Origin: an uncultured Verrucomicrobiae bacterium
GTDB taxonomy: Bacteria; Chlamydiota; Chlamydiia; Chlamydiales; Rhabdochlamydiaceae
Length of the DNA: 64,000 nucleotides
Direction: 5' to 3'
Assembly: GCA_963818965.1 (NCBI GenBank)
Contig: CAWFUG010000009.1
Location: 384,001 to 448,000 of the forward strand
Part shown: positions 34,722-56,900 of the stretch, piece by piece
How the letters are laid out: the number at the start of each line of letters is the position of its first letter
Position numbering within the stretch: position 1 is the stretch's first letter
Position numbers and translations under genes: made by a program
The notes under the pieces: model-generated
Told to the model about the DNA's origin: nothing
Databases searched by the model: none
Seen by the model: the letters and a program-made list of their open reading frames with translations, nothing else

Positions 34722-35489
34722 ATGTCATTAAAGGGAAAGGTCGCCATCGTAACGGGGGGTAACAGCGGAATCGGTAAAGCAATCGTATTGGCGCTTGCTA
34801 AACAAGGGGCTAACATCGTCATCGATTATCTCGTCGGACAAAAAGAGTTAGATGATCTAGAAAAGCAGATTGTAGCCCTCGGGGATCAAGCGATCGGTGT
34901 GCAGGCCGATGTCAGCAAAGTCGCAGAACTCCAGAAAATCATCGATGCGGCAGTCGCTCGCTTTGGAAAAATCGACATCATGGTGAACAACGCGGGGGTC
35001 GAGACGCGGACTTCGATTTTGGATACGACAGAGCAGCAATATGAAAAAGTGCTCAGCATCAACTTGAAGAGCGCCTTTTTTGGCACTCAGCTCGCTGCCA
35101 AGCAGATGATCAAGCAGGGGAATGGGGGGCGGATCATCAATGTCACCTCCGTTCACGAAGACTGGCCGATGCCGGGGAACATCGCTTATTGCCTTTCCAA
35201 AGGGGGGATGCGCATGCTGACCCGTACAGCAGGGGTCGAGCTCGGGCCCCATAACATCTGCGTCGTCGGCATTGGGCCGGGCGCTGTCGCTACGCCGATC
35301 AATCTGACGACGATGCAAAATCCTGCGCTGATGCAAAAACTAGATACGGCGATTCCGTTGGGGCGAATGGCAAAGCCAGAGGAGATCGCCGCAGTCGCTG
35401 CCTTTGTAGCAGGGGAGGGGGGATCTTACATCACGGCGACGACGATCTTTGCCGATGGCGGGATCATGCAACAAGGACCTGGTCTATGA
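34722..35489 (+). CDS. Short-chain dehydrogenase, glucose-1-dehydrogenase-like
   Basis: TGGNSGIG, NNAG, SVHE, YCLSK; AGGAGG upstream. Confidence 0.9.
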   Translation: MSLKGKVAIVTGGNSGIGKAIVLALAKQGANIVIDYLVGQKELDDLEKQIVALGDQAIGVQADVSKVAELQKIIDAAVARFGKIDIMVNNAGVETRTSILDTTEQQYEKVLSINLKSAFFGTQLAAKQMIKQGNGGRIINVTSVHEDWPMPGNIAYCLSKGGMRMLTRTAGVELGPHNICVVGIGPGAVATPINLTTMQNPALMQKLDTAIPLGRMAKPEEIAAVAAFVAGEGGSYITATTIFADGGIMQQGPGL

Positions 35490-38176
35490 CAACACAAGAA
35501 GAAAAGCGACTTCAAGAGGCAAAAGAGGGTACTGCGCCCTGGCGCCTCTTCGGCCCTTATCTCAGCGAACGGCAATGGGGTACGGTGCGCGAAGACTACA
35601 GTGGAAATGGAGATGCGTGGAACTATCTCCCGCACGATCATGCCCGCTCGCGCGCCTACCGCTGGGGAGAAGAGGGGATCGCGGGGATTTCTGACAATCG
35701 ACAACAGCTCTGCTTTGCCCTGTCTCTTTGGAATGGAAAGGATCCCATCCTTAAAGAGCGCCTCTTCGGTTTGACAGGACATGAGGGAAACCATGGAGAA
35801 GATGTCAAGGAGTACTACTTCTATCTCGATAATCTCCCTTCCCACGCCTACATGAAGTACCTCTATAAGTACCCTCAGAGTGCCTATCCTTACGAAGCTC
35901 TTGTCGCAGAAAATCGCAGACGATCCCGCTCAGATCCTGAATACGAGCTGCTCGATACGGGGATCTTTAATGAGGATCGGTATTTCGATGTCTTTGTTCA
36001 CTACGCTAAGGCTTCTCCAGAGGACATGTTGATCGAGATTGAAGTGGTGAACCGAGGCCCAGAGCTCGCAGAGCTCCATCTCTTGCCGACGCTCTGGTTC
36101 CGTAATATGTGGAGCTGGGATGGAGAGGAAGCAAAACCCAAACTCACTCTCGAAGCCAATCAAGTGGTGCATGCGCATCACCCATCGCTCGGTGACTACT
36201 GGCTCTATTGCGAATCGCCCGAAAAGTTTTTCTTCACAGAGAATGAGACCAATTGCGAGAGGCTCTTCGGCACAAAAAATACATCCGCTTATGTCAAAGA
36301 TGGGATCGATACTTATGTCGTCCATGGCAAACCGGAAGCCATTAATCCCAAAAACGTCGGGACTAAAGTCGCAGCTTCCTACGTTCTTAAAATCGCTCCG
36401 GGAGAGACGGCGACGGTACGGCTGCGTCTCTGCAATACGGGGACGTTAAAAGACCCCTTCGGCAGGGAATTTACCGCTACGTTTCAAACCCGTCTTGCAG
36501 AAGCGGATGCCTTCTATCAGCGGATCTGCCCCTTTCCCCTCTCCGATGACATGCGCAATGTCCAGAGGCAGGCATTTGCGGGATTGCTCTGGAATAAACA
36601 GCTCTACCACTACAACGTCGAAACTTGGCTCAAGGGAGACCCAGGGGAGCCTGAGCCTCCGGAAACGCGAAAAGAGGGGCGCAACGCGAAGTGGTGGAAC
36701 CTCGATGCTTATGACATCTTCTCCATGCCAGATAAGTGGGAGTACCCTTGGTTTGCCTCCTGGGATTTAGGGTTCCATACGATTTCACTTGCCCTCTTAG
36801 ATCCTGAATTTGCAAAGAACCAATTGCTGCTTCTCGTGCGCGAGTGGTACATGCATCCCGATGGGCAGATTCCGGCTTATGAATGGTCGTTTGAAGATGT
36901 CAACCCTCCTGTCCACGCATGGGCAGCACTGCGCGTCTACCAAATCGAAGCCAATCGCTATGGGCGCAAAGATATCGATTTTCTCAAGAAAATCTTCCAC
37001 AAACTCTCTTTGAACTTCACCTGGTGGGTGAACCGAAAGGACAAGGATGGACGCAATATCTTCGACGGGGGATTTTTAGGACTCGATAACATCGGTGTCT
37101 TCGATCGCTCCAAAGAAGTGCCGATGGGAGGGGTTTTAGAACAGTGCGATGGGACGAGTTGGATGGGAATGTACTGCCTTAACCTCTTGCAGATCGCCCT
37201 TGAAATCGCACAGGAAGACTCTTCCTACGAAGACATGGCGGTCAAATTTTTCGAGCATTTCATCTACATCGCCGATGCGATCAATAACCTCGGTGGACAG
37301 ACGGATGGACTGTGGGATGAGGAGAGGGGCTTTTACTATGGAGTGCTGAACCTACCCGATGGAAGGCGGATCCAGCTGGACTGCGAGACGATCATCGGAG
37401 CGATTCCGCTCTTTGCTGTCGTCGTCAACGATCCTAGGAATTCAACCGGTTTTTCTGAATACAGGGAGCGATTTTTGTGGCTCGTCAAAAATCGCCCTGA
37501 GCTCGTGAAGCATATCGTTGCGACAGAAAAATGGACGGAAGAGGGGAAACTACTCATCGCCCTCGCGAGTCCTGAAAAGATGCGACGCATCTTGTCCAAG
37601 ATATTAGACGAACAGGTTTTCTTAAGTCCCTTTGGCCTCAGATCTGTCTCACGCCAGTTAAAAGACAACCCCTTCACTCTCCACTTAGGAGATGAGACCT
37701 ACAGCCTCAATTACGAACCGGCTGAAGCGACAGTGCCTCTCTATGGCGGGAATTCCAACTGGAGAGGGCCGATCTGGTTTCCGTTGAATTACCTCTTCAT
37801 CGAATCGCTGCAAAAATACCACTACTACCTCGGAGACAGCTTTCAAGTGGAGTGTCCGACAGGCTCTGGAAACCAAATGAGTTTATGGGACGTCACCTCT
37901 GAGCTCTCCTATCGACTGATGAAGATCTTCCTAAAGGATGAACAGGGAAGACGTCCTCTCTATGGCAATATCGAGAAATTTCAGACCGACCCTCACTGGC
38001 GCGACTACATCCTCTTTCACGAGTATTTTAACGGAGATACGGGAATGGGACTCGGCGCAAGCGCTCAGACAGGGTGGACGGGCCTCGTCGCTAAGCTCAT
38101 CCTCCAACACGGCGAATACGTCATGCAGCACAAATCTCCAATCCCTTACGAAAAAAAACGGGCAGGTAATGCGTGA
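35486..38176 (+). CDS. GH63/MGH1-like glycoside hydrolase
   Basis: GPYLSERQWGTVREDYS, SMPDKWEYPWFA.WD, NSNWRGPIW, FHEYF.GD.G.GLGA. Confidence 0.9.
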   Translation: MTTQEEKRLQEAKEGTAPWRLFGPYLSERQWGTVREDYSGNGDAWNYLPHDHARSRAYRWGEEGIAGISDNRQQLCFALSLWNGKDPILKERLFGLTGHEGNHGEDVKEYYFYLDNLPSHAYMKYLYKYPQSAYPYEALVAENRRRSRSDPEYELLDTGIFNEDRYFDVFVHYAKASPEDMLIEIEVVNRGPELAELHLLPTLWFRNMWSWDGEEAKPKLTLEANQVVHAHHPSLGDYWLYCESPEKFFFTENETNCERLFGTKNTSAYVKDGIDTYVVHGKPEAINPKNVGTKVAASYVLKIAPGETATVRLRLCNTGTLKDPFGREFTATFQTRLAEADAFYQRICPFPLSDDMRNVQRQAFAGLLWNKQLYHYNVETWLKGDPGEPEPPETRKEGRNAKWWNLDAYDIFSMPDKWEYPWFASWDLGFHTISLALLDPEFAKNQLLLLVREWYMHPDGQIPAYEWSFEDVNPPVHAWAALRVYQIEANRYGRKDIDFLKKIFHKLSLNFTWWVNRKDKDGRNIFDGGFLGLDNIGVFDRSKEVPMGGVLEQCDGTSWMGMYCLNLLQIALEIAQEDSSYEDMAVKFFEHFIYIADAINNLGGQTDGLWDEERGFYYGVLNLPDGRRIQLDCETIIGAIPLFAVVVNDPRNSTGFSEYRERFLWLVKNRPELVKHIVATEKWTEEGKLLIALASPEKMRRILSKILDEQVFLSPFGLRSVSRQLKDNPFTLHLGDETYSLNYEPAEATVPLYGGNSNWRGPIWFPLNYLFIESLQKYHYYLGDSFQVECPTGSGNQMSLWDVTSELSYRLMKIFLKDEQGRRPLYGNIEKFQTDPHWRDYILFHEYFNGDTGMGLGASAQTGWTGLVAKLILQHGEYVMQHKSPIPYEKKRAGNA

Positions 38177-39726
38177 ATACAGAATACGACTTCATCATCA
38201 TCGGTAGCGGAGCGGGAGGAGGCACCCTCGCGCAACACCTCGCCCCTTCTGGAAAGCGGATTCTTATCCTAGAGCGGGGCGATTGGTTGCCACGCGAGGT
38301 GCAGAATTGGGATGCGCGCGCCGTTTTTATGGAAAATCGATACGTCTCCAAGGAGACCTGGTACGACGATAAGGGCAAACCCTTCCAACCTCAAGTCCAC
38401 TACTACGTCGGTGGTGCTACGAAAATGTACGGCGCAGCGCTCTATCGCCTGCGCAAAGAGGACTTCCAAGCCTTAAAACACCACGACGGGATCTCTCCTG
38501 CCTGGCCGATTAGCTATGAGGAATTGGAACCTTACTACACAAAAGCAGAGCAGCTCTATCAGGTACACGGAGAGAGGGGAATCGATCCGACAGAACCTCC
38601 GTCCAGCGCTCCTTACCCTTACCCACACGTATCGCATGAGCCGCGTATCCAAAAACTCTACGACAATCTGAAAAAAGCGGGTTATCATCCCTTTCCCGCT
38701 CCCTGTGCCATCATGCTCAATGAACAAAATAGGGCATTTAGCCGCTGCATTCGCTGTAACACGTGCGACGGCTTTCCGTGTCTCGTTCAAGCCAAAGCCG
38801 ATGCAGAGATGGTAGGCATTCGGCCTGCACTCTCTTTTCCCAACGTCACCCTTCTCACTCATGCCTGCGCTGTCAAACTCAACACCGATCCTTCAGGGCG
38901 CGTAGTGACCGAAGTCGTGGCAGATGTCGACGGTAAAAGAGAGAATTTCCGCGGCAAAATCGTCATCGTCTCCTGTGGGGCAGCGAACTCTGCGCAGCTG
39001 CTCCTCCGCTCTGCAAGCGACAAACATCCCAAAGGACTTGCCAACGGCTCCGATCAAGTCGGCCGCAATTACATGTTCCACAATAGCCAAGCCGTGCTGG
39101 CTCTCTCACTCGAACCTAATCCCACTCAATTCCAAAAGACCCTTTCCCTCAATGATTTTTACCTCGGCTCAGATGACTTTCCCTTCCCCATGGGCAATAT
39201 CCAAATGGTGGGAAAGTCCCTTGGACCCATGTATAAGGGAGAAAAGCCGCTCGAGACCCTGCTGGCACCGATGATGGCCCTCGATGAGATTGCCAAGCAC
39301 GCCGTCGACTTTTGGCTCTCTACAGAAGATCTCCCCGATCCCAATAACCGAGTCACTCTCGATGCAGAAGGGAAACTCACCCTCCACTACACCCCCAATA
39401 ATCAGGTTCCTAAGCAAAAACTCTACGAAAAACTCAAATCGATGCTCGGCCACCTCGAGATGAATCCCTACCACTTGATCCCGCGGCACGCTTACCTCAA
39501 GAGTGAAATCCCCTTGGCGGGAGTCGCCCACCAGGCAGGCACCTGCCGCTTTGGAAAGGACTCCACCACTTCCGTCCTCGATACGCACTGCAAGGCCCAC
39601 GAGCTCGATAACCTCTATGTCGTCGACACGAGTTTCTTCCCGAGCATCGGAGCGGTCAATCCCTCGCTCACTGCCATGGCAAACGCTTTGCGCGTGGGAG
39701 ACCATTTGTTAGGCGTTATTGCCTAA
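38173..39726 (+). CDS. GMC-family FAD oxidoreductase
   Basis: IIGSGAGGG, HQAGTCRFG, NLYVVD.SFFPS..AVNP. Confidence 0.92.
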   Translation: MNTEYDFIIIGSGAGGGTLAQHLAPSGKRILILERGDWLPREVQNWDARAVFMENRYVSKETWYDDKGKPFQPQVHYYVGGATKMYGAALYRLRKEDFQALKHHDGISPAWPISYEELEPYYTKAEQLYQVHGERGIDPTEPPSSAPYPYPHVSHEPRIQKLYDNLKKAGYHPFPAPCAIMLNEQNRAFSRCIRCNTCDGFPCLVQAKADAEMVGIRPALSFPNVTLLTHACAVKLNTDPSGRVVTEVVADVDGKRENFRGKIVIVSCGAANSAQLLLRSASDKHPKGLANGSDQVGRNYMFHNSQAVLALSLEPNPTQFQKTLSLNDFYLGSDDFPFPMGNIQMVGKSLGPMYKGEKPLETLLAPMMALDEIAKHAVDFWLSTEDLPDPNNRVTLDAEGKLTLHYTPNNQVPKQKLYEKLKSMLGHLEMNPYHLIPRHAYLKSEIPLAGVAHQAGTCRFGKDSTTSVLDTHCKAHELDNLYVVDTSFFPSIGAVNPSLTAMANALRVGDHLLGVIA

Positions 39727-41385: not shown

Positions 41386-41862
41386 ATGTTTTTTATGAGT
41401 CCATTTTTATTCACTTATCAGATTTATCCAGTTCTTAATGCCTCTCGTAGTTCTTCAGTTCCTAATACCCCTAACCAGAACGAATTGAGCGAGGCTAAGT
41501 ATATCCAGCTCTATGCGAGGATCCCTAGCTCGACACTGACAAGTAGCTCTGAGATGACATGCAGCTCTGTTTGGAGCGAGCCCTTTGATGAAATCAGACC
41601 TTTTGAGAAGGATGCTATCAGTGCAGAGAATGAGGTTCATGGAAATTCAGAAGCCGCTTTTGAGGATAGTGGAGAAGGAGCTAGCAGCCTACCTGAAGGA
41701 AAAGAAAGGGGTTCCACGAAAGGGTACATTGCCAACGATTCAATGGAGAGTTCTGAGTGTCGTCGACTGACGATTTCAGAGGAAGTGGCTCTGATGAAGG
41801 AGACTCAATTGTTAAAGCATACGTTGTATATCTGGAATAAGACTTTAACTAACTCGAAATGA
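41386..41862 (+). CDS. Ser/Glu-rich hypothetical protein
   Basis: ORF after an AT-rich spacer; shares a 41-aa block with the next gene. Confidence 0.55.
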   Translation: MFFMSPFLFTYQIYPVLNASRSSSVPNTPNQNELSEAKYIQLYARIPSSTLTSSSEMTCSSVWSEPFDEIRPFEKDAISAENEVHGNSEAAFEDSGEGASSLPEGKERGSTKGYIANDSMESSECRRLTISEEVALMKETQLLKHTLYIWNKTLTNSK

Positions 41863-42147
41863 GGGCAAAAGGGCTGTGTCAGGGTGGGCTAGGACCTAGA
41901 TTTTCCTCCGCCCACGACAAAAAATCGTCGTTCGAGGCAAATCGGGAAGAAAATGAACGGGATATTATCCTGTTCATTTTTTGTGGTGTACAGAGTCAAT
42001 TTTCAAGCTCCAAGTCTCAATTGTCTTATAATTAGCGATTTGCGTCTTTTAAAGCGCGTTGTTTTATATTTCCATCCTTTTAATGTTTATTTTAGTTATA
42101 ATTAATATTATATAATTATCATTAATAATAAAAATTGAGGGTTGTTT

Positions 42148-42807
42148 ATGTCTTTGTGTTTAGGTTTAGGGCATAGTGCGGGAGAGCTGAATTCTGTTCC
42201 ATTACCCGGGCTAGCTCAATCGCGTTGGATGAAGTTCTGTGAAGAAAACCATATATTTAGTGGTTTTGAAGTAGGGAATAAATCGACAGAGGAAAAATCT
42301 GCTAGAGTGTATGCAAGCACAGATAAATCGACATCTACTAGTAGCTCTGGATTTGTGATTATCGAGAGACCCCAATTGTGTGATTCTCATTACGAGGCCC
42401 CTTGTCCATCCAGGGAATCGAGTCTTTCAAAGGAATTGAGCGAGGCTAAATATATCCAACTCTATGCGAGGATCCCTAGCTCGACACTGGCAAGTAGCTC
42501 TGAGATGACATGCAGTTCTGTCTGGAGCGAGCCCTTTGATGAAATCAGACCTTTTCAGACGATCAGTACAGAGAGTGAAGTTTCTTTAGGATATATTCCA
42601 GATGATGCGGGGGAAGAACCTGAGGATGTAAAACAAGAAGCTTCTGAAGTAGGTTATTCTCCCACTGATGCGGGGGAGATTTCTAGGTATTCTCCACCCA
42701 CCCTCGCAGAAGAATATGATCTCCGAATTCAGGCGCAATTTTTACAGCATGCATCGCCTTTGTGGGGTCAGCCCTTAAATACCTGGCAAATCCCCATCGC
42801 ATTCTAG
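42148..42807 (+). CDS. Ser/Glu-rich hypothetical protein
   Basis: GAGG upstream; shares the 41-aa block. Confidence 0.55.
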   Translation: MSLCLGLGHSAGELNSVPLPGLAQSRWMKFCEENHIFSGFEVGNKSTEEKSARVYASTDKSTSTSSSGFVIIERPQLCDSHYEAPCPSRESSLSKELSEAKYIQLYARIPSSTLASSSEMTCSSVWSEPFDEIRPFQTISTESEVSLGYIPDDAGEEPEDVKQEASEVGYSPTDAGEISRYSPPTLAEEYDLRIQAQFLQHASPLWGQPLNTWQIPIAF

Positions 42808-42937: not shown

Positions 42938-43103
42938 TACCCCTTCCACCTCAATCGTACCCAAGAAAACCGAATGAAAAGTTCTCAAAATTCGAATCAA
43001 AGGTCGGGGTTAATATTAAATTCAATATTGACCCCGACCTTTGGTTCGAATTTTGAGGCTTTTAATCGGTTTGCTTGTGGTTACGATTGAGGTGGAAGGG
43101 GTA
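42938..43103. mobile_element. 166-bp palindromic MITE, copy 2
   Basis: Same termini and length as 27824-27989; TA flanks. Confidence 0.85.
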
Positions 43104-44066
43104 TATATCCCGTATTCGCTCTGTAACAGCCTCTTCGAGATAAGGGAGGAGCTCAGGGTATTCTTTTTGAAGCCATCTTTTCAGTTCCAATGTCCCATAG
43201 AAGAGCTCCTGTCTATAGACGAAGGGCTCGCGCATTCTCTCATTTTCCAGGAAGGAGCCCGAATCGATTTCGACTGCTTGGGTGCCGATGAATCCCAAAT
43301 TGCGATCGACGATATCCCGATCGGCAAATCCCTTCGTGCAGCGCACGAGGATCAATTGGAGCAGGGAGTCGATGCACTCCTTTGCAGCTGCGTGGTTTTC
43401 CTCCTGTTTCAAGGCGGCGAGGTGTGTTTCGATCGGGACTGCCTTTTTTTGGAGGAAAAACTTGGCAGTATCGAGATCGATCGTATGAGCGATACCACAG
43501 CTATCGTAGAGGTTAAGGCTCCGCTGGAGGTGCTCTGTCGGGTTAAGGTGAAGATAGAGAAGCCCTGCTTCCTCTTTTAGCTGAGTATAGGCCAGTTTGA
43601 GGCTCGTGAAGGTCCGCAGCAGCCGGTATTCGCGCATGCCAAACAGGCGCTTGAGCGCTTTATCGAAAAAAGAGTGACTCTCCCCCTTCGCGTAGGAGAG
43701 ATCGGAAAGAGTCCCCGCATAGCTACTGTAATCTTCTAGAAAGATCCCCCGATGGATGTAGACAGGTCGTAACAGGTCCAACTTGAAGAATTTGATGACC
43801 GTCGATTCATCTGCGCTCAAAAAGGCGAAGCATTCGCTGCCAGCTCCCAAAAAGGTGTAGCTTTGCGAGAGGAGCGCATCGACTGCTTTTTCCGTTTCTG
43901 CAGAAAGAGGCGGGGTTTGCCAGTCAGAGTGGAAAGGAAGGTCTTGCGCGCGGATCCTCTCGATACAAAAGCCGCGGGTTTGCCGTTCGATGAGTTGCTG
44001 TAACCCTAAAAACAACCCGATAGCGCAACAGAATTTAAAAAAAGTTTTCACAAAACGTTGAATCAT
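43062..44066 (-). CDS. Membrane-anchored protein-kinase-like protein (5 of 5)
   Basis: FLGAGSECFAF, VIKFF, DRDIVDRN, IDSG; the C-terminus is read from the MITE. Confidence 0.7.
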   Translation of the reverse strand: MIQRFVKTFFKFCCAIGLFLGLQQLIERQTRGFCIERIRAQDLPFHSDWQTPPLSAETEKAVDALLSQSYTFLGAGSECFAFLSADESTVIKFFKLDLLRPVYIHRGIFLEDYSSYAGTLSDLSYAKGESHSFFDKALKRLFGMREYRLLRTFTSLKLAYTQLKEEAGLLYLHLNPTEHLQRSLNLYDSCGIAHTIDLDTAKFFLQKKAVPIETHLAALKQEENHAAAKECIDSLLQLILVRCTKGFADRDIVDRNLGFIGTQAVEIDSGSFLENERMREPFVYRQELFYGTLELKRWLQKEYPELLPYLEEAVTERIRDIYPFHLNRNHKQTD

Positions 44067-44958
44067 CCTCACATGATAATCGCTCCTGCAATTCTCGATC
44101 AAGAGGGGGGATGAGAGAGGGCGCATTTTTTGTCAGCCAAAATTTTAAGCTGGCAAAGACGCGTTCGCTCTCTTTTTGTCGGTACTGTTGGGAGCAGACT
44201 GCCCCGTCCTTCGAGAGGGGGCCGATGTCGATTTGGATTGCTTTCCCCTCGAGGAAGCCATAATTGGTGCGGATCAGGGGGTCGTTGTCTGCAATGCCGT
44301 GCCCGTACTTCCAAAAGAAGAGATCGAGCAGGGAAGACAGCGCCTGGCTCGCCTCAGATGTCTTCCCCTCATCGATCATTTTTTTGAGCGCCGGATAGGC
44401 GAGCTCGACCTTTTTTTGGATGACGAACCCGATCCCATTCAGATCGATCGGATGCGCGATATTGAGCCGATCGATGAGGAAGAGGGGAGCGGGGAGTTCT
44501 GCGCCTTTTTGCAGATGTACGTAGAGCAGCGCTGTCTGCTCCTGCATCTCCTCAAAAGCGATCGCGTAGCTCGTGAATGTCCGCTGGAGCTTCTGCTCGA
44601 AGAAGTTCCGTTTTGCCTCTGCCCATGTGTTTAAAAAGGGGAAGTGGGAAAAGAATCTAAAGAGGGAAATTTTAGAGGGATAGGCGTTATTGAAGATCTT
44701 GAGGACATATTCTCCATCTTCAGAGAGAAACGCAAAGCTCTGTTTCCCCCGCCCGAAGTAGCGGAATTTTTGCTGCAGAAGCGAAAGTGGCGCGTGAGGT
44801 GTTTGAGGTAGGAGAGCCTCTGAGGTTTTTTTGGGGGGTAAGTTATCTCTGATTTTCCACAGCGCAAACCCTTTGGTCTCGTGGTGGCAAAAGCGGGCCG
44901 TTCCATAACAGAGGAGCGGGATGAGGAGGAGGGTAAGTATTCTAGACTTTAGCATCAT
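44035..44958 (-). CDS. Membrane-anchored protein-kinase-like protein (4 of 5)
   Basis: YFGRGKQSFAF, VLKIF, DNDPLIRTN, IDIG. Confidence 0.7.
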   Translation of the reverse strand: MMLKSRILTLLLIPLLCYGTARFCHHETKGFALWKIRDNLPPKKTSEALLPQTPHAPLSLLQQKFRYFGRGKQSFAFLSEDGEYVLKIFNNAYPSKISLFRFFSHFPFLNTWAEAKRNFFEQKLQRTFTSYAIAFEEMQEQTALLYVHLQKGAELPAPLFLIDRLNIAHPIDLNGIGFVIQKKVELAYPALKKMIDEGKTSEASQALSSLLDLFFWKYGHGIADNDPLIRTNYGFLEGKAIQIDIGPLSKDGAVCSQQYRQKESERVFASLKFWLTKNAPSLIPPLDRELQERLSCEDDSTFCENFF

Positions 44959-44980
44959 TTGACAAGTTGTTTTCTCTACA

Positions 44981-45066
44981 AACCTTTTTTCTCTCTGTGG
45001 TTTCCCCTCTCTGTGGTTAAAAAAATTTCACCACAGAGAGGGGAAACCACAGAGAGAAAAAAGGTT
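44981..45066. repeat. Type B ACCACAGAG palindrome inside the kinase-like cluster
   Basis: About 36-bp arms: AACCTTTTTTCTCTCTGTGG.../...CCACAGAGAGAAAAAAGGTT. Confidence 0.9.
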
Positions 45067-45070
45067 CTAT

Positions 45071-45934
45071 TCATGCATAAATTTTCATCTCTTCATCGAG
45101 AAGATCTACGAGTTCAGGGTGACACTCTTCTAACCAGTGGCGGAAGCGTTTCATGATCAGGCGGAGATCTTCTCGGTAGACGTCGGGGTTTTTGCGCTGA
45201 TCGTCCCTCACAAAACGCCCCACGTCGATGAAGATCGGCGCTTCTTCGATAAATCCCAAATTGCGATGGATCTTCGGATCCTCGTCGAAAATCCCCTTTT
45301 CACAGCGGGAGACGATCCCTTTTAAGATGGCGGCAAATCCTGCGCGGAGCTTAGTGAGATTTTGTTCTTCTACGAGGGTGTCGATGTAATCATAAGCCAA
45401 GATCGCTCTTTTTTGCAGGACGAATTCGACATCATTAAGGGGGATCTCATGGGAGATGCCGAGTTTATCGATGATATGGGCCGTGAGATCGAGGGGCACA
45501 TCTTTGTTGAGGTGGATGTAGAGCAGACCCGATTCCTCTTTTAGCTCTTCGTAGGCGAGTTTGTAGCTCGTGAAATCGCGGCGCATTTTAAGGAGTGATT
45601 TCTGCAATTTCTTTTCAGAGAGATAGGGGTAAAGGTAAGAGTAGGGCTTGCGGAAGCGGTGTTTGAAGAATTTAATCACGTAGCGTTCATCATGTGAGGC
45701 AAAGGCGAAGGCTTGACCCCCACAGGCTAAATAGTGAAAGGGTTGGGAGAGGATCTCTCGGAGCTGTTCTCTTTGTGCGGTTTCGATCGGCTCTATTTCC
45801 CATTCAGGAGAAGGAGCGAATTCAGAATGGATTCTAGCGACGGAAAACCCATCGGTCTGAGCGTCGCAAAAGGTTTTAGCGAGGTAGAAGATCAGCATTA
45901 CAGCGCTTAAAAGTGTTAAAAATCTGAATTTCAT
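45071..45934 (-). CDS. Membrane-anchored protein-kinase-like protein (3 of 5)
   Basis: YLACGGQAFAF, VIKFF, DEDPKIHRN, IDVG. Confidence 0.7.
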   Translation of the reverse strand: MKFRFLTLLSAVMLIFYLAKTFCDAQTDGFSVARIHSEFAPSPEWEIEPIETAQREQLREILSQPFHYLACGGQAFAFASHDERYVIKFFKHRFRKPYSYLYPYLSEKKLQKSLLKMRRDFTSYKLAYEELKEESGLLYIHLNKDVPLDLTAHIIDKLGISHEIPLNDVEFVLQKRAILAYDYIDTLVEEQNLTKLRAGFAAILKGIVSRCEKGIFDEDPKIHRNLGFIEEAPIFIDVGRFVRDDQRKNPDVYREDLRLIMKRFRHWLEECHPELVDLLDEEMKIYA

Positions 45935-46716
45935 AGGAAGCTGGCCACAGTTTGATCAAAATGTTCGAGGAGCTCTTCGTGATGGGTAGCGAGCCAGTTG
46001 CGAAAGCGGGGAGTGATCCGCGCGATCTCTTTCTTGTAATTCTCCTGGTTTTTGATCTCTTCTGAATAGACGACTCGCCCGATGTCGAAGAGGATTGGTT
46101 CCCCTGCGATAAAGCCGCAGTTCGACTGGAAGTTGGCATCCCGATTTCGGAATCCTTTTTTGAAGAGATCGACATGGAGCAAGAGGAGGCGTTCGATTCC
46201 TTCTTTGGCGAGATCTTCTCGACCTTGGCTTACCCACGCATCGATTTGATCATAAGTGAGAATGGCTCTTTTTTGCAGCAAAAAGAGATGCTCCTCTAAA
46301 TCGAGGTCAAGGGGTATTCCTTCCGGTCCGAACAGGCGCGCGGTTCGGGGCAGGGGGGTGCGTTTTAGATGGGCGTAGAGAACCCCTGTTTCTTGGGCAA
46401 AGTGTTCAGAGCAGAGCTGAAAGGCGTAAAGGACCTTGTTTTTTTGAAGTGCTGCCTTCGCTTTATTTTTCGAGAATTTGGGTTTTAAGAATTTCAAAAC
46501 AAACTGCCCATCTGCGCTGAAAAAGACATGGGATTGTCCTCCTCTGCCGAAGTAGTGATACTCTTGCGAGAGGGCCTCTTCGACAATTGCCTTTTCTCGT
46601 TCAGAGAGCTGGCCAGAAGGGGCTGTGGCGGAGATTTTTTCCACTGAAAACGAGCGGCTCTCTTGTGTCGTACAAGCGAAAAGAAGCGTCAAGCTCATCA
46701 AGAGAACGTACCACAT
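45931..46716 (-). CDS. Probable lipoprotein, protein-kinase-like (2 of 5)
   Basis: Lipobox-like LFAC; YFGRGGQSHVF, VLKFL, NRDANFQSN, FDIG. Confidence 0.7.
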   Translation of the reverse strand: MWYVLLMSLTLLFACTTQESRSFSVEKISATAPSGQLSEREKAIVEEALSQEYHYFGRGGQSHVFFSADGQFVLKFLKPKFSKNKAKAALQKNKVLYAFQLCSEHFAQETGVLYAHLKRTPLPRTARLFGPEGIPLDLDLEEHLFLLQKRAILTYDQIDAWVSQGREDLAKEGIERLLLLHVDLFKKGFRNRDANFQSNCGFIAGEPILFDIGRVVYSEEIKNQENYKKEIARITPRFRNWLATHHEELLEHFDQTVASFL

Positions 46717-47610
46717 CTAAATTTCCGATTCTAATCGATGGATTTCATGCATCAGATGCTCAGAGAGGGGAGGACAGCTTTGATCGAGCCACTGGCGAAA
46801 ATGGTCTGTAGTCCGGATGATCTCATCCCGATAATTCTCTTCCGTCCCTTTTTCTTCACGGGGGCGGAACCTGCCGATATCGATTTGCAGCGGCTTTTGA
46901 CCAATGAAGCCGAAATTTGTATTGAGATCGGGATCTTTGTCGAAGATTCCCCTTTCACAGCGCACAGCGAGCAGGCGGACCAATGCAGAAATCGCTTCTT
47001 TCGCTTCGGAGATCTCTCCTTTTTGTACCAGCGCATCGATCGCAGGGTAGACCAACTGCGCCCGTTTTTGTACCAAAAATTCCATGTCATCGAGACAGAT
47101 GCGATGAGCGATATTCAGTTTATCGTAGAGGATGAGTTCTTTGTCGAGGTGCTTTGTCTTATTCAGATGCAGATAGAGCAATCCCGTCTCATCGCGCAAT
47201 TGATCATAGGCGATGACGTAACTCTGGAAGTCCTTGCGGAGCTCTTCTCTCTTCTGTAGCCATTTTCTCAATTGAAAGGCCTGTAAAAAAGGGGGGAACT
47301 GCAGCTGAGAAATCCAAAAAGGAGGGAGCAAATGGTTGAGGCGGAAAAATTTGATGACCGACTCTCCATCTTCTGAAACAAAGACGAAAGACTGCGCCCC
47401 TTTGGCCAAATAAAAATAGGGCTGATCGAGTGTTTTTAAGACGGCAGAGCACTCGTTTTCAGGAAGTAGTTCCACTTCCCAATCGGGATTAAACGGCAGG
47501 GAAGATTGGATTTTATGAGGGGAAAACCCTTCCGTTCTCTTGTAGCAAAATCGCTTGACAAGAGGCAAAGACCCTACGACGAGAAGAATGAAAAGGATGC
47601 GTCTTAACAT
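46717..47610 (-). CDS. Membrane-anchored protein-kinase-like protein (1 of 5)
   Basis: YLAKGAQSFVF, VIKFF, DKDPDLNTN, IDIG. Confidence 0.7.
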   Translation of the reverse strand: MLRRILFILLVVGSLPLVKRFCYKRTEGFSPHKIQSSLPFNPDWEVELLPENECSAVLKTLDQPYFYLAKGAQSFVFVSEDGESVIKFFRLNHLLPPFWISQLQFPPFLQAFQLRKWLQKREELRKDFQSYVIAYDQLRDETGLLYLHLNKTKHLDKELILYDKLNIAHRICLDDMEFLVQKRAQLVYPAIDALVQKGEISEAKEAISALVRLLAVRCERGIFDKDPDLNTNFGFIGQKPLQIDIGRFRPREEKGTEENYRDEIIRTTDHFRQWLDQSCPPLSEHLMHEIHRLESEI

Positions 47611-47937
47611 GTGGCTACAATGTAGCCTCTATACCCAATTTAGCTCAAGAACCTATCCCTTAACTGGACTCAAAAGTCGGTGGTCCTCATCGCTAGAAAA
47701 ATAGAATCTTAAGCAAAAAATAGTAAGGTGGACCCCAATGTCTAGACAAAAAAATCAGATCATTTTGCGCGTCTTGACGCTTGCTCCAAAAACCTTACCA
47801 AAAGCTCCTTATACCCAAGTGGACTCACGAGTTGCCAGATCTTGAGCTTGGTCTGGCACAACTTTTGTTTATAGAAATTAACGAAATGTCTATAGTAGAC
47901 GCTCGCATTGATTTTTTTAACAAAAAACAGGAGTTTT

Positions 47938-49695
47938 ATGGCTTCCTCTTTAGGTGGTGTACCCCAACGCAACTCAATTCAGCCCATTCCAGAACATGCC
48001 GCCTCAACGAAGCTAGCTCTCCCCAGCGAGCTATGGAAGCTCATTTGGCACTATTTGCCTGTGCAAGCGCGATTGAGCTGGGGATCTACAGCAAAAGCGA
48101 TGCGCGGCGATCCTGAGATTTGGGAGCTCTTTTTAACGCGCTGTTATCCCGGCATTTATGCAAGACACCACGCGCAGGTTCCTGAATGGCAACTTTCTTC
48201 TCTTTTTTTTCAAATCAAGAAAGAGATCGCAGCCATCGGTCCTCATATCAGCCAGGGAAAATGCACCATTCGCACTTTGGATTGGATCGAGGGGAACCCG
48301 ATTGCCAAATACGTCTTTGAGGGGCAGATCTATACCTGCTTTTGTAATGGAGCAATCAGGGTGTGGGATCTGATCCAGAAAAAAGAGCTCTATACGCTAT
48401 GTGAGGGGGATGAGACTGTGCATTGGACTCGATCAGATGTGGCTCTTACAGCTTCTGCGCGGTTCCTCATCCTTTCTCAAAAACAGGTAGTAGCGGAGCG
48501 AAAGACGCTGATGATTTGGGATCTCGAGGAGCGGGAAAAAAGCCCTTCCCTTCTCATTGACTGTGCTGCGTACCAATTGCTCCATGATCAACTCTATTAT
48601 GTCACTGCACAGAATCTAATCCAGGTGATCGATTTAAAGACACTAGAGGAGAAGGTCTGTTTTGCTTTTCCAAGCGAAAAATCACAGCTTGGCTATAATT
48701 TTCAGTTTTTTGTGGGTCCGGGACAGGTTCTTTACTTATTCATGGGCGGAGAGATTATAGAATGGGATTTGAAAGTAGGGAAGGAGCGCAGTCGCTTTCC
48801 TCACAGGCTTCCCGCGGAAGCGCGGATTGAATGGTATGAAGGGGGGCAGTTTTTGCGGTTGGTCGCAGATGGTAAATATCTTTGCCTATACCCCGATTCC
48901 TTGGAGAGAAACGACTTGATTTATTTCTGCGATCTCCGCCGCGAATCAAAACAATGGCTTTGTACTGAGTGCAATGTCCCTGCGGCAGATTGTGAGATGG
49001 CTGAGGGGGGATTCTTCTATAGAAGTCGAAACAGGTTGGTGAACTTCTACTCTTTTGAGGGCAAAAAGACATATTCTTGGCCTCTTGGAACAGATGTGGA
49101 GATCGACTATTTTTGGATCGAACCGGAACCCCGTTCGATTCAATGTCAATGGGATGGGTATGAACGGTTTTGCCTGCCTTATTCTCAATCATCCATTAGC
49201 GTGAGAGACTTTAGCTTCTCTTGTCAGGCGTCCTATGCAGAAGAAGTGCTCGATCAGAGTCTAGAAGTTGTAGAGTCGATGCAACATGCAGAGAATGAAG
49301 AAGCGTGGAAAGATCTTTTTCAAAAGCTACACCTCGATTTTCAAGCCGAGTGGGAGAGTGCTGCTTATCTAGACCCCCTAACGATTAAAAGAATGCAAAC
49401 AGACATTTACTTCCAGCAAATGCTCCATATGCTTCACAGGGAAGATTTACAGATCGTAAGAGAGCTTTTGTACAAATGGATAGAGATCGATCCGGGGAAT
49501 CAGGAGAGACTGAGGTGTTGTATCAATGCTACCATAAGAAGGGGTTGTCCTTTGCAAGAGGAAGAAAATAGCATCGATGCCTTTTTCCACCTAAACCCGG
49601 GCCGACCCAATCTCGTAAAGACGCCGATCGGATATCAGGCGTATATGATTCAGAAGTTGCAGATCCTAAAAACTAATACCAATCCTCGAAAATAA
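47938..49695 (+). CDS. F-box + WD40-like protein
   Basis: LPSELWKLIWHYL; IRVWDL, LMIWDL, IEWDL; C-terminal region resembles that of the 22375/25001 pair. Confidence 0.75.
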   Translation: MASSLGGVPQRNSIQPIPEHAASTKLALPSELWKLIWHYLPVQARLSWGSTAKAMRGDPEIWELFLTRCYPGIYARHHAQVPEWQLSSLFFQIKKEIAAIGPHISQGKCTIRTLDWIEGNPIAKYVFEGQIYTCFCNGAIRVWDLIQKKELYTLCEGDETVHWTRSDVALTASARFLILSQKQVVAERKTLMIWDLEEREKSPSLLIDCAAYQLLHDQLYYVTAQNLIQVIDLKTLEEKVCFAFPSEKSQLGYNFQFFVGPGQVLYLFMGGEIIEWDLKVGKERSRFPHRLPAEARIEWYEGGQFLRLVADGKYLCLYPDSLERNDLIYFCDLRRESKQWLCTECNVPAADCEMAEGGFFYRSRNRLVNFYSFEGKKTYSWPLGTDVEIDYFWIEPEPRSIQCQWDGYERFCLPYSQSSISVRDFSFSCQASYAEEVLDQSLEVVESMQHAENEEAWKDLFQKLHLDFQAEWESAAYLDPLTIKRMQTDIYFQQMLHMLHREDLQIVRELLYKWIEIDPGNQERLRCCINATIRRGCPLQEEENSIDAFFHLNPGRPNLVKTPIGYQAYMIQKLQILKTNTNPRK

Positions 49696-50050: not shown

Positions 50051-50884
50051 TTATTTCAGCGTGATGGTGCGCTCTACGTCGTTGAAGAGGCCGGGGACGC
50101 GCTTATTTTTGGGGTCGAGTAGCTCCAAACGGATCTTGTGCATTCCCTTTTTGAGCCCGTAGATGTAGTGGGGCTGCCAAGAGGTCAACTGCCTTTGTAT
50201 ATTACCATCGATAGTCAGCCGTACCTTGTACCCATCCTTGGAGAGGGTGCAATGGGTCAGATAGAAGTCGAGCAGCACGGGCTTGGGTTTCTTTTCATTA
50301 TAGGGGATGTCCCCTTGAGGAAAATTGTAGGTGAGATAGGGAGCTGAGAGATCGACTTTCGGGTTGTCTTTCTTCTCTTGGAAATAAAAGATGCTGGCCG
50401 TGAAGGCATTTGCCGCTTTGATGCTCTCGTGGTAGGAGCGGCAGGGGTAGGCGCGGATGACGTGCATTCCCGGTTGTAGCTTGAAGGGGATTTCAAAATT
50501 AGCGGTTTGATCGAAGTAGTTTTCGATGTCATCTAGGGCGTCGAGAAAGGCCTCGCTGACGGAGAAGTAGGGCTCATTGTCGATCATGATATGGACCGAT
50601 TGCCCTTCTGGGTCATTCCAAACCTCATTCCTTCTGGGATTATCTTCTGTGTCTACCCCTAATGCGATCCCATCGACCCGGATCTGTCCTTTGATGGGGG
50701 CCGATTTTTTGAGCTCGCCGTATTTGGGAAAGAGGATTTTCGTTTCCACCGCGTTCGGATCGGGAGAGGGATCGACAGGAACGACGCGTATGCTGTGCGG
50801 ATTAGCCTGTTGTTCTTTCAGTTCTGCGGCAAAGTTTGAAGAAAAGAGCAGTGAGAAGACGGTAGTAAGTAGGCTTAGGCGCAT
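50051..50884 (-). CDS. Exported hypothetical protein (two related beta-rich domains)
   Basis: Signal-like MRLSLL...FAA; HIMIDNEPY, GMHVIRAYP, GMHKIRLELLD; AGGAG upstream. Confidence 0.75.
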   Translation of the reverse strand: MRLSLLTTVFSLLFSSNFAAELKEQQANPHSIRVVPVDPSPDPNAVETKILFPKYGELKKSAPIKGQIRVDGIALGVDTEDNPRRNEVWNDPEGQSVHIMIDNEPYFSVSEAFLDALDDIENYFDQTANFEIPFKLQPGMHVIRAYPCRSYHESIKAANAFTASIFYFQEKKDNPKVDLSAPYLTYNFPQGDIPYNEKKPKPVLLDFYLTHCTLSKDGYKVRLTIDGNIQRQLTSWQPHYIYGLKKGMHKIRLELLDPKNKRVPGLFNDVERTITLK

Positions 50885-50900
50885 AAGGATTCTCCTAGTA

Positions 50901-50965
50901 TACACCCAAGTGAACTCAAAAGGTGGCGCAGTCCTATCGCCAACGTTTGAATTCACTTGGGTATA
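50901..50965. mobile_element. About 65-bp MITE-like inverted-repeat element
   Basis: ACCCAAGTGAACTCAAAAGGTGGCG...CGCCAACGTTTGAATTCACTTGGGT with TA flanks. Confidence 0.7.
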
Positions 50966-52085: not shown

Positions 52086-54230
52086 ATGCGACGGCGTAAA
52101 GGTCAAGAGGGGCTCTCTGTTGTGCAAGCAGTTGATCATCTGTCTTCTATGGCAGAGATCGATACGTATGCTCCTTTAAATGAGCCGCCTCTCTCCAAAA
52201 AGCGAATACAAACCCTAACGCAGGATGATCCTGAGTATTTTCTCTATCATCGAGACCAGATAAAAGAGACCTTCAGGACGATCCTCAACTATCTCAAAGA
52301 GTTGCATCAAAAAGATAAGGGAAAGCTGCGCGAAGACGAGGTGCAGCGAGGGCTCAAGGCCGTCATTCTCTTAGCCACAGAGGCAGCGGAGAAGCTCGAT
52401 AAGTACGCGGAAGTGGAACAACAGGGAAAGATTACAGAGCTCAAAGAGTACCAGGATCTGATGAAGTTCTACCAGAGCAAGGTATTCCACCGCTTCCAAG
52501 CCCCTCAAGAGGGCACAGAACACTGGCCAGAACAATGGGGATCTCTTGCAGTAGAAAACGCTCAAAAGGGGAGCTTAAAAGGATTAGAGTCTGTGCGCTC
52601 TGATCGAGAATACGAGCTCTTTTACATCAAAAAAGAGGATGGAACGCCCTATTTTAACCGCTCTTTGTTGCGCCATCTTCAGCTTGTCGGGAAATTCGAT
52701 ACGCTGCTCATCGATCCCAAATCGGATGATCTCTTTGGACGCTTGAAAATCATGCAAGATAGAGACTCTCATCACGCCGCCCAAAAAATCTTAAGTGCTG
52801 TATGGGATCAAATCGAAGAGTATTTTAAAGAGGCGATGAAACACAAAGAGATTCCCTATGTCGCAGCAGTCAACCAAGCGATCATGGCCCTCATGCTCAG
52901 TGCCAATACAGCGAATCTCTTGCAAAATACGACAGGAAAGAGCTCTTTGCGCTATTATGCTGATTTCCTCTTATACCTACGCCAAGCGCTCCACTCAGAA
53001 GAATACCGACGTTACCTAACGCACCCTCCGAAGACAGCCGAGCGTTTTTTTTCCCTCGCCTTTAAATTGACCCATCAGCTCAGCGCCCTTGTCTTCTTGC
53101 GATCAGGCTATCAAAAAGAGATGCAGCTGTTCATCCGCCAATTGATCGAAAGGGGGATGGCAGATAGCATAACAGAGAAAGAGAAGAAAAGCCCCTTGGC
53201 CTCTTGGAACATCTTACGCGATGAAGACGCCGCCTTGCGCTCTTTGTTACAAAAGTATCCCAATGGTCCTCTCATAAAGACCCTTTCCCTATTTCAAGAC
53301 GATCTTCCCATGAGCGGCTTTGATCCGATCAAATCGACGCATCTGCCTGCGCAGCTTTACACGCTGGTCAATAACGACATGCATGTGAGTTGCTTGAGAA
53401 TCCCCAGTCCTATCCTCCAAAAAGTAATCCGCAAAGCAGAGATCGCTGAAGAATTTTACGGGTTTTTAAGGAGTCTTAGCTCCAAAGGAACCCATCAACA
53501 CCATCTTCTCATCAACCTTCAGGACCGCACCTCGTGGCAGGAGCACACGCGCTGTGTCGCTCTAGAAGAGATCCCTGAAAAAGAAGATTTTTCAGCCGTA
53601 TTGAGCGTCGTGACCCTTCCCAAAAGTGGCGATTTTTACTGGCAGAGCGCCGAATATCTCGATCGCGACGATGCGAGCGAATTCATCCAACAGTTTAAGA
53701 GTCAAATTGCAAGCGGAGAGCAGTGCGGCTTTTTCTTCCCTAAAACGATCGACAAAAAGCAACTGGCTACATTTTCCACTCAAGCATTCCAAACGATCCA
53801 TACCCTCTTCTTCGGCGGAAAAAAGATGTTGACCCATCGCAACCGACTCGATTTCATCGAGATCTTCTACATCCTGTTAACTCTCAAGCTCATCGAAGAG
53901 AGCTCCCCAGATAGTATGAGCTTCACCTGTAAGGACGCCCTCGATACAGGCATCGTCCACAGCGCCGAGCTCTTCGCCTTCCTGCGGTTGCTCAATGACC
54001 CTTCCCCCTGTACCAAGGAAGAGCGCGACTTCTTCGTCTGGATGCTCTATGCCCCTGCTTTGGAGGCCCGTTTCCGGGCGATCGAGCCCAAGGCCTTGGA
54101 TCGGATGCTCGGGGCCATCAGCCTCATCCACGGCGAGCTCGAGGCCCACCGCACCGCCATTGTGGCCGGCTGCGGCCAGCTCTACAAGCGGCAGTTCTTT
54201 AAAGACTTGATTATCAAGGACTTCGTTTAG
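52086..54230 (+). CDS. Hypothetical protein (714 aa)
   Basis: Long ORF; LINLQDR and SFTCKDALD motifs. Confidence 0.75.
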   Translation: MRRRKGQEGLSVVQAVDHLSSMAEIDTYAPLNEPPLSKKRIQTLTQDDPEYFLYHRDQIKETFRTILNYLKELHQKDKGKLREDEVQRGLKAVILLATEAAEKLDKYAEVEQQGKITELKEYQDLMKFYQSKVFHRFQAPQEGTEHWPEQWGSLAVENAQKGSLKGLESVRSDREYELFYIKKEDGTPYFNRSLLRHLQLVGKFDTLLIDPKSDDLFGRLKIMQDRDSHHAAQKILSAVWDQIEEYFKEAMKHKEIPYVAAVNQAIMALMLSANTANLLQNTTGKSSLRYYADFLLYLRQALHSEEYRRYLTHPPKTAERFFSLAFKLTHQLSALVFLRSGYQKEMQLFIRQLIERGMADSITEKEKKSPLASWNILRDEDAALRSLLQKYPNGPLIKTLSLFQDDLPMSGFDPIKSTHLPAQLYTLVNNDMHVSCLRIPSPILQKVIRKAEIAEEFYGFLRSLSSKGTHQHHLLINLQDRTSWQEHTRCVALEEIPEKEDFSAVLSVVTLPKSGDFYWQSAEYLDRDDASEFIQQFKSQIASGEQCGFFFPKTIDKKQLATFSTQAFQTIHTLFFGGKKMLTHRNRLDFIEIFYILLTLKLIEESSPDSMSFTCKDALDTGIVHSAELFAFLRLLNDPSPCTKEERDFFVWMLYAPALEARFRAIEPKALDRMLGAISLIHGELEAHRTAIVAGCGQLYKRQFFKDLIIKDFV

Positions 54231-56864: not shown

Positions 56865-56900
56865 GAAAGGGGAGACCTCATCAGAGGCTCCCCTTTTTTT
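56865..56900. terminator. Bidirectional terminator between convergent genes
   Basis: AAAGGGGAG.CCTC...GAGGCTCCCCTTTTTTT. Confidence 0.65.

Follow-up and report, generated by a model that had tools for sequence, protein, structure and literature searches.

A tandem array of five genes, read here as members of a new sequence family within the protein-kinase-like (PKL) superfamily, lies in a 64,000-nucleotide (nt) stretch of DNA from an uncultured bacterium of the Rhabdochlamydiaceae (contig CAWFUG010000009.1, positions 384,001 to 448,000 of the forward strand), referred to throughout as the window. The five open reading frames (ORFs), named paralogs A to E, follow one another in the same direction on the minus strand (43062-47610), are predicted to adopt a kinase-like fold in which the catalytic residues are kept, and begin with leaders that are Sec-like in character across the family. 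The model favoured here, to which a probability of roughly one half is assigned as a whole, is that of a new PKL family whose members would be directed by a Sec-type leader and would phosphorylate envelope targets on the extracytoplasmic side of the inner membrane.

Results

Five diverged paralogs keep kinase motifs in a fixed order

The window had previously been described from its letters alone (the sequence-only reading) as carrying five tandem, co-directional, strongly diverged ORFs with kinase motifs in a common order, and the ORF list and a MAFFT alignment agree with this description exactly (Table 1). The ATG of B lies on the base immediately after the stop codon of A, and B shares 4 nt with C, an arrangement in which at least A, B and C look translationally coupled. 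C and D are spaced by 112 nt, and D and E overlap by 92 nt when E is taken as its longest ORF. As the N-termini of E orthologues begin approximately 20 residues downstream of that start, translation of E probably initiates at Met21 (window position 44066), with a 30-nt gap to D replacing the overlap. A scan for promoters and terminators returned counts within shuffle expectation.

Paralogs B, C, D and E share 33%, 40%, 36% and 35% identity with A, respectively, and 31 alignment columns are invariant in all five, among them (in A numbering) G71, F77, S79, D81, K87, H148, Q181, D226, N232, D244 and G246. Matches of the five to the family profile range from E 1e-141 to 3e-78 (B 3.2e-78, C 8.9e-108, D 1.2e-99 and E 2.0e-98), showing that their similarity reflects homology and not chance. 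Each protein carries a Gly-loop (Y/F-x3-G71-x-Q/E-x2-V/A-F77), a β3-type lysine (V-I/L-K87) and a DFG-like motif (I/F-D244-x-G246), and the catalytic loop reads D226-x5-N232 in A to D and D-x4-N in E, so that the Lys/Asp/Asn/Asp set is retained in all five, as had been proposed. Paralog A illustrates the architecture, with a basic and hydrophobic N-terminal leader, a juxtamembrane KRFCYKRTEGF segment and a minimal kinase-like domain; its best matches are 59-62% identical, besides one near-identical entry at 98%.

The predicted fold is that of a minimal kinase

Paralog A was modelled with AlphaFold2 from an alignment of 47 sequences; the model is of high confidence (predicted local distance difference test score (pLDDT) 91.8, predicted template modelling score (pTM) 0.87) and has the bilobal PKL fold, with an N-lobe β-sheet with helix C and a helical C-lobe bearing the catalytic and metal-binding loops. 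Comparison of this model with the PDB using Foldseek returned top matches that are all kinase-like (E 1e-4 to 3e-3), comprising AceK, RIO1/2, PRPK/Bud32, WaaP (6dfl_A, E 2.7e-4), Lpg2603, WbdD, COQ8A and APH(3'). In a second, independent structure scan of 48,161 representative chains the best 50 rows are all kinase or pseudokinase entries, with AceK scoring 10.7, PINK1 9.9, Haspin 9.8, Bud32 9.7, POMK 9.1 and Rio1 8.9, and with the pseudokinases MLKL, IRAK3 and CASK scoring about as well. Fold comparison against RIO, Kdo, CotH, Fam20 and eukaryotic kinases had been suggested with the sequence-only reading, and its expectation of a kinase-like fold is borne out, with AceK, RIO, Bud32 and WaaP among the matches. 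A protein-kinase-like fold for the five proteins is thus well supported by modelling.

According to the DSSP strands of the model, by which motif positions were judged rather than by residue-level superposition, K87 lies in the third N-lobe strand (84-89), D226 and N232 lie in the loop that joins strand 222-224 to strand 233-236, and D244 lies just past strand 239-242. In the model, Gly-loop, β3 Lys, Asp...Asn and DFG-type Asp are accordingly placed in canonical kinase order and position. Only two helices follow the DxG motif, which makes the C-lobe minimal, as in RIO, Bud32 and Kdo-type kinases, and extra strands (158-182) carry the invariant Gln181. The suggestion that the five proteins form a hetero-oligomer finds nothing in the analysis to support it; a complex prediction for the kinase domains of A and B, each with its own alignment, gave no answer (score 0.00 in two runs) and is uninformative on oligomers either way.

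Sequence-family searches point to a new family

Pfam and NCBIfam searches with the five proteins gave only noise (E 0.03-0.18), a Pfam search with 47 homologs, run at E ≤ 10, pointed consistently to no one family (DUF2110 was the commonest, in 7 of the 47), and PDB sequences searched with two profiles yielded nothing beyond a spurious KduI match (E 0.2-1.7). Membership of the eukaryotic protein kinases (ePKs) was rejected, as Pkinase had no match at E ≤ 1 among the five or at E ≤ 10 among the 47 homologs, an hhalign comparison with four of the genome's own ePK domains gave a probability of 3%, and in the model DxG is followed by two helices only, where ePKs have an APE motif and helices F to I. 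AceK family membership was likewise rejected (no Pfam match, and proteins of 261-354 amino acids (aa) with no extra, regulatory, domain), as was membership of RIO1 or Bud32 (no sequence-model match) and of the Kdo/WaaP/WaaY kinases, whose models PF06293 and PF06176 do not detect the family; a genome-wide search with PF06293 matched only ordinary Ser/Thr kinase genes. Fam20 and CotH had no Pfam match and are absent from the listed rows of the structure scans, which does not exclude them. The nearest language-model neighbours with a Pfam family, taken as leads only, are YrbL-PhoP_reg (0.88), Kinase-PolyVal (0.86) and WaaY (0.86). Since none of the known families stands out and none of the sequence models tried recognised the proteins, the five genes are read, from their modelled fold, as a new sequence family within the PKL superfamily. 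No description of the family was found in the literature searched, a body with few subscription journals.

The catalytic set is conserved across the family

Catalytic positions are Lys, Asp, Asn and Asp (KDND) in 288 of 302 homologs, and the individual residues G71, K87, D226, N232 and D244 are kept in 301, 301, 290, 299 and 297 of them, respectively. Further near-invariant positions (Q63, S79, D81, H148, Q181 and W274) are specific to the family, as is a linker that follows the hydrophobic core of the leader ([KRQ]-F-C-x3-T-D-G-F, or F-C-x3-T-x-G-F). The genome holds 11 copies, five in the window array and six on four other contigs, and two of the latter have lost the catalytic-loop Asp at position 226, which is Asn in one and Glu in the other (Table 1); from their sequences, these paralogs may be regulatory or inactive copies.

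Departures from KDND, seen in 14 of the 302 homologs, bear on whether the fold is put to another use, as an ATPase or switch (RIO, Bud32), in another nucleotide-dependent transfer (SelO, SidJ) or as a pseudokinase scaffold. The presence of Bud32/PRPK and RIO among the closest folds and the similar scores of the pseudokinases are in keeping with such a use, but the large majority of homologs, and all five window genes, retain the four catalytic positions and the Gly-loop, a pattern that marks active phosphotransfer or ATP hydrolysis and not a dead scaffold, and we regard this alternative as quite improbable. Judged by their motifs, the five proteins may be catalytically active and bind ATP-Mg.

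The family is large, restricted among named records to environmental chlamydiae and maintained in old arrays

A word-indexed search returned 366 homologs, all without a name or labelled 'hypothetical', and a hidden Markov model search of 1.84 billion representatives (of clusters at 50% identity) returned 2549 at E ≤ 1e-3 and 1800 at E ≤ 1e-30. In a sample of 300 genomes from the phylum, grouped into chlamydial families with working labels (f1, f4 and so on), the family was matched in 220, including 59 of 62 genomes of f1, 32 of 32 of f6, 46 of 46 of f7 and 24 of 26 of f9; no match was found in the genomes of f4 (0/29), f10 (0/5), f14 (0/7) or f15 (0/4) in this sample. f4 is a small-genome family (1.0-1.4 Mb) and is probably the Chlamydiaceae. 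Named records with relatives are from Rhabdochlamydia(ceae), Waddliaceae, Simkania, Parachlamydiaceae and unclassified chlamydial metagenome-assembled genomes (MAGs). Some MAGs with relatives were labelled by their submitters as Verrucomicrobia, Acidobacteria or even Chlamydia trachomatis, labels that are taken to be binning or labelling artefacts. Among named records, the family is restricted to environmental chlamydiae and is massively expanded there.

Twenty loci from f1 relatives, chosen because their matches ranked among the best 150 listed and hence no random sample, all carry arrays of 3-8 copies. In a FastTree phylogeny of 133 copies, orthogroup A has 23 members in 21 loci (support 0.998), B has 21 members in 21 loci (0.944) and C has 20 members in 20 loci (0.864); D has 22 members in 17 loci with weak support (0.488), and E has 18 members in 13 loci (0.155). 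Members of A are 36-60% identical across the 20 related arrays. By this pattern the array is old and its members are individually maintained, and the keeping of the long-lived orthogroups A, B and C in every array examined suggests that each paralog has its own substrate and that the copies are not redundant.

Several relatives (P0121, P0123, P0127, P0057, P0273 and P0274) are tandem double-kinase proteins of 501-564 aa, for which merging of gene calls is possible. Apart from these, no fusions to other domains were seen; the longer homologs (two, of 526-537 aa) have no precomputed Pfam domain.

The N-terminal leader resembles a Sec signal

A hydrophobic stretch is present at the N-terminus of all five proteins, as anticipated by the sequence-only reading, and the leaders otherwise differ: that of B (MWYVLLMSLTLLFAC) has no basic residue and contains a lipobox-like LFAC, that of D ends in ...GTARFCHHETKGF, and E lacks the juxtamembrane Cys. 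The side of the membrane on which the domain would lie was approached by counting charges around the hydrophobic stretch. In a fixed-window count of 125 sequences, Lys and Arg (K/R) were more numerous in the C-flank than in the N-flank in 90, less numerous in 10 and equal in 25. As the fixed window swallowed N-terminal basic residues, it was replaced by a count based on the core, defined as the longest uncharged run ahead of the conserved GF, in 254 homologs with gene-caller starts. Cores have a median of 15 residues and are mostly of 11-16 residues; their N-flank contains at least one K/R in 249 of the 254 and at least two in 223, with an acidic residue in only 24. Net charge is 2.57 ahead of the core versus 1.80 past it, and is higher on the N-side in 138 homologs, lower in 56 and equal in 60. 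The leaders thus combine a basic n-region with an uncharged h-region as long as that of a signal peptide, and also resemble the signals of nucleoside diphosphate kinases (Ndk) of the same genomes. Among the controls, chlamydial OppA-type lipoproteins, which are exported, behave in the same way: the n-region has 1-3 K/R, the core spans 14-21 residues and the net charge past the lipobox is +1 to +6. MlaD of the same genomes, a true N-in anchor, has 22-residue cores. In P0123, a divergent member, a classical signal with AHA|V at its end precedes an acidic stretch and two kinase domains.

These leader counts, the OppA and MlaD controls and the signal of P0123 favour export, and a Sec-type N-in leader with an extracytoplasmic domain is considered likely from sequence. 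Several observations weigh against it. The fixed-window count on its own would suggest a cytoplasmic domain, and in the core-based count raw K/R in the 15 residues past the core are again more numerous than in the N-flank (mean 3.05 versus 2.67). Small -1 and allowed -3 residues directly ahead of the first charged residue are present in only 60 of 254 homologs, and cleavage of the leader is uncertain. No conserved Cys pair, as expected of periplasmic disulfides, was found in the 302 homologs, in which only the juxtamembrane C22 is conserved (233 of 302).

The same basic stretch past the core would fit proteins anchored N-out and facing the cytoplasm, acting as small-molecule or glycolipid kinases with lipid-linked sugars, the lipopolysaccharide (LPS) core or inner-leaflet lipids as substrates, much as WaaP, WaaY or KdkA do. 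Supply of ATP would then be no problem, and the minimal C-lobe, which is like that of Kdo/WaaP- and RIO-type kinases, the WaaP match in the Foldseek list and the language-model leads YrbL-PhoP_reg, Kinase-PolyVal and WaaY agree with it. However, an N-out orientation requires translocation of an N-terminal tail that mostly holds two or more K/R and almost no acidic residues, the core is short for a stable transmembrane helix when compared with the MlaD anchors, exported OppA lipoproteins are equally basic past their signal, P0123 has a classical cleavable signal, and the family escapes the Kdo and WaaY models of Pfam; a cytoplasmic orientation is therefore judged unlikely. The earlier proposal that these are exported kinases is favoured by the Sec-like N-termini and the lipoprotein control, and is tempered by the K/R-rich stretch and by the fixed-window count.

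A lipoprotein reading was rejected. The LFAC motif noted in the sequence-only reading is indeed present in B, the only one of the five to have it, but is not conserved, a lipobox-like pattern (loose regular expression) being found in 2 of 21 B orthologues. The conserved family Cys was also rejected as a lipobox Cys, being preceded by [KRQ]-F and not by the [LVI][ASTVI][GAS] of a lipobox.

A signal-bearing Ndk and the supply of ATP

The second Ndk of the genome is encoded 2.6 kb from paralog E and has a predicted cleavable signal peptide (MRKLILFLLGICSVWTAPILAAS|AP); a plain ndk is located on another contig (Table 1). Orthologues of the signal-bearing Ndk lie 2-4.4 kb from kinase arrays in six f1 relatives, and G209, from another chlamydial family, has one immediately next to its kinase cluster. 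Several genomes of other families (for example G235, G122 and G055 of f6, and G202 of f7) have their two ndk genes less than 2 kb apart, with the listed kinase match far from the paired ndk genes in G235 and G122, and most genomes with the kinase family have a single ndk match. The link between Ndk and the kinases, raised as a speculation in the sequence-only reading, recurs in same-family relatives and one other-family genome; as it is absent in other genomes, it is suggestive at best, and the window Ndk is a possible nucleotide-handling partner of the kinases.

Chlamydiae import host nucleotides through TLC/NTT transporters, and this genome has three TLC nucleotide-transporter genes of full length, besides a partial match. 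Because these transporters sit in the inner membrane, host ATP must cross the chlamydial periplasm to reach them, which would make a periplasmic kinase feasible in these bacteria.

An exported Ndk paralog in chlamydiae is already on record: Table 1 of a study of Waddlia chondrophila lists Ndk2 (with a predicted signal peptide) and Ndk1 (with none) among proteins that mass spectrometry found in the medium once infected cells had been permeabilised (PMC7143554). Several other signal-peptide proteins are listed in the same table. In a rival reading, for which this detection speaks, the kinases, once exported by Sec, would leave the bacterium by type II secretion or in outer-membrane vesicles and act as host-directed effectors in the inclusion lumen or host cytosol. 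The Sec-like leader, the multi-copy tandem arrays and the restriction of the family, among named records, to host-associated chlamydiae would suit such a role. Nevertheless, orthogroups A, B and C are stable across the 20 related arrays, unlike fast-evolving effectors, the conserved linker right after the hydrophobic core suggests retention of the domain at the membrane, only a minority have a clear signal-peptidase site, and the Waddlia table, whose hypothetical proteins could not be mapped, yielded no identified member of the family (PMC7143554). Release towards the host is accordingly given little weight.

Gene neighbourhood

No neighbour is consistent across the contexts examined, and a substrate is not indicated. 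The six copies outside the window sit among unrelated housekeeping genes. At f9, f23 and f25 loci, the kinase genes appear to share an operon with those of two SBP_bac_5 (OppA-like) proteins and a leaderless protein of 660-720 aa, with a divergent DHA2-type major facilitator superfamily pump and an MlaEFD system nearby; in f6 and f12 a FabI-like reductase lies alongside instead. The model of the 660-aa partner is mediocre (pLDDT 72, pTM 0.35) and shows repeated α/β modules; its best match (7jsr, E 1.7e-7) is to the N-terminal region of a 180-kDa glutamate dehydrogenase, to which the ESM lead also points. This partner was set aside as a functional clue, since likeness to glutamate dehydrogenase does not explain the kinases. 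Near the window array lie Mla genes and two uncharacterized conserved neighbours, and the position of Mla relative to the kinase cluster is conserved in f9 and f25.

Other genes around the array were noted in passing. Two adjacent ORFs share a nearly identical stretch of approximately 45 residues (LSEAKYIQLYARIPSSTL...FDEIRPF) and have no Pfam match at E ≤ 1. A 595-aa protein encoded divergently from the array has no Pfam or NCBIfam match and contains a stretch (LPSELWKLIWHYLP) that is F-box-like by eye only. Just upstream of Ndk lie the genes of a GH63/MGH1-like glycoside hydrolase (896 aa) and, after it, a GMC oxidoreductase (517 aa).

Table 1 Coordinates of the kinase array, its neighbours and related loci (window positions unless a genome or locus is named)
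Feature	Position	Strand	Basis or remark
GH63/MGH1-like hydrolase and GMC oxidoreductase	35486-39726	+	
Second Ndk of the genome	39946-40455	+	PF00334, E 1.5e-55, residues 32-166
Adjacent ORFs with shared stretch	41386-41862; 42142-42807	+	
Paralog E	43062-44126	−	longest ORF, 354 aa
Paralog D	44035-44958	−	ORF, 307 aa
Paralog C	45071-45934	−	ORF, 287 aa
Paralog B	45931-46716	−	ORF, 261 aa; shortest copy
Paralog A	46717-47610	−	ORF, 297 aa; most conserved copy
Codon of K87 (A)	47350-47352	−	
Codon of D226 (A)	46933-46935	−	
Codon of N232 (A)	46915-46917	−	
Codon of D244 (A)	46879-46881	−	
Divergent 595-aa protein	47908-49695	+	
Conserved neighbours	50051-50956; 52086-54230		
MlaD, MlaF, MlaE homologs	56899-59697	−	clustering with Pfam-typed orthologues of other loci
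Plain ndk	G000:C1:274518-274919		
Paralog with Asn at position 226	G000:C8:45551-46414		
Paralog with Glu at position 226	G000:C12:40107-40922		second C12 copy
Interleaved kinase/OppA loci	L002:1122-9205; also L005, L006, L007, L009, L010		

Discussion

In the proposed mechanism, the leader, with its basic n-region and uncharged core of 11-16 residues, would carry the domain across the inner membrane, after which the domain would stay tethered or be released into the periplasm. There, a minimal core resembling those of RIO, Bud32 and AceK would use ATP-Mg to phosphorylate envelope targets, and the ATP would be host ATP crossing the periplasm en route to the inner-membrane nucleotide transporters. 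A broader and more speculative version, which we hold to be doubtful though not far-fetched, is that environmental chlamydiae run periplasmic, ATP-dependent phosphorylation in which a battery of Sec-exported kinases (five here and eleven in the genome) acts on envelope proteins, glycans or lipids at the expense of host ATP, with an exported Ndk balancing the nucleotide pool.

Beyond the topology counts, the points on the other side of the balance are that RIO and Bud32, which are among the closest folds, largely act as ATPases, that two paralogs of the same genome have lost D226, that the neighbourhood names no substrate, and that f4, whose members would also live on host ATP, has no match in any of its 29 genomes.

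To our knowledge, the periplasm of free-living Gram-negative bacteria is regarded as ATP-free, and the broader version, if true, would place in chlamydiae a compartment and a chemistry thought to be missing there for want of periplasmic ATP. A periplasmic domain would mean that these energy parasites exploit host ATP outside their own cytoplasm, and would add a new layer of envelope regulation or modification; a cytoplasmic domain would still represent a new class of membrane-anchored kinases. On either side of the membrane, a very large family that had no annotation turns out to have a predicted kinase fold with an intact catalytic set, and ranks with the most expanded families of these reduced genomes, although the 29 f4 genomes searched gave no match.

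Among known systems, AceK provides one of the closest folds in its kinase domain, and its N-terminal regulatory domain is not present in the chlamydial proteins. Bud32/PRPK and RIO1/RIO2 are minimal atypical kinases that share the minimal C-lobe; they differ in being cytoplasmic or nuclear, in serving ribosome and tRNA pathways and in having no leader, whereas the chlamydial family has the extra strands 158-182. WaaP, WaaY, KdkA and YrbL are, like the chlamydial proteins, small bacterial PKL enzymes at the membrane, and theirs are the nearest Pfam-bearing language-model clusters; the LPS-core kinases WaaP, WaaY and KdkA act on the cytoplasmic side, and the Pfam models Kdo and WaaY fail to recognise the chlamydial family. 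The extracytoplasmic kinases POMK, Fam20, four-jointed and CotH have no sequence relationship to the family, and POMK, one of the eukaryotic secretory-pathway kinases, is no closer in structure than ordinary kinases; for the chlamydial proteins, an extracytoplasmic location is a prediction.

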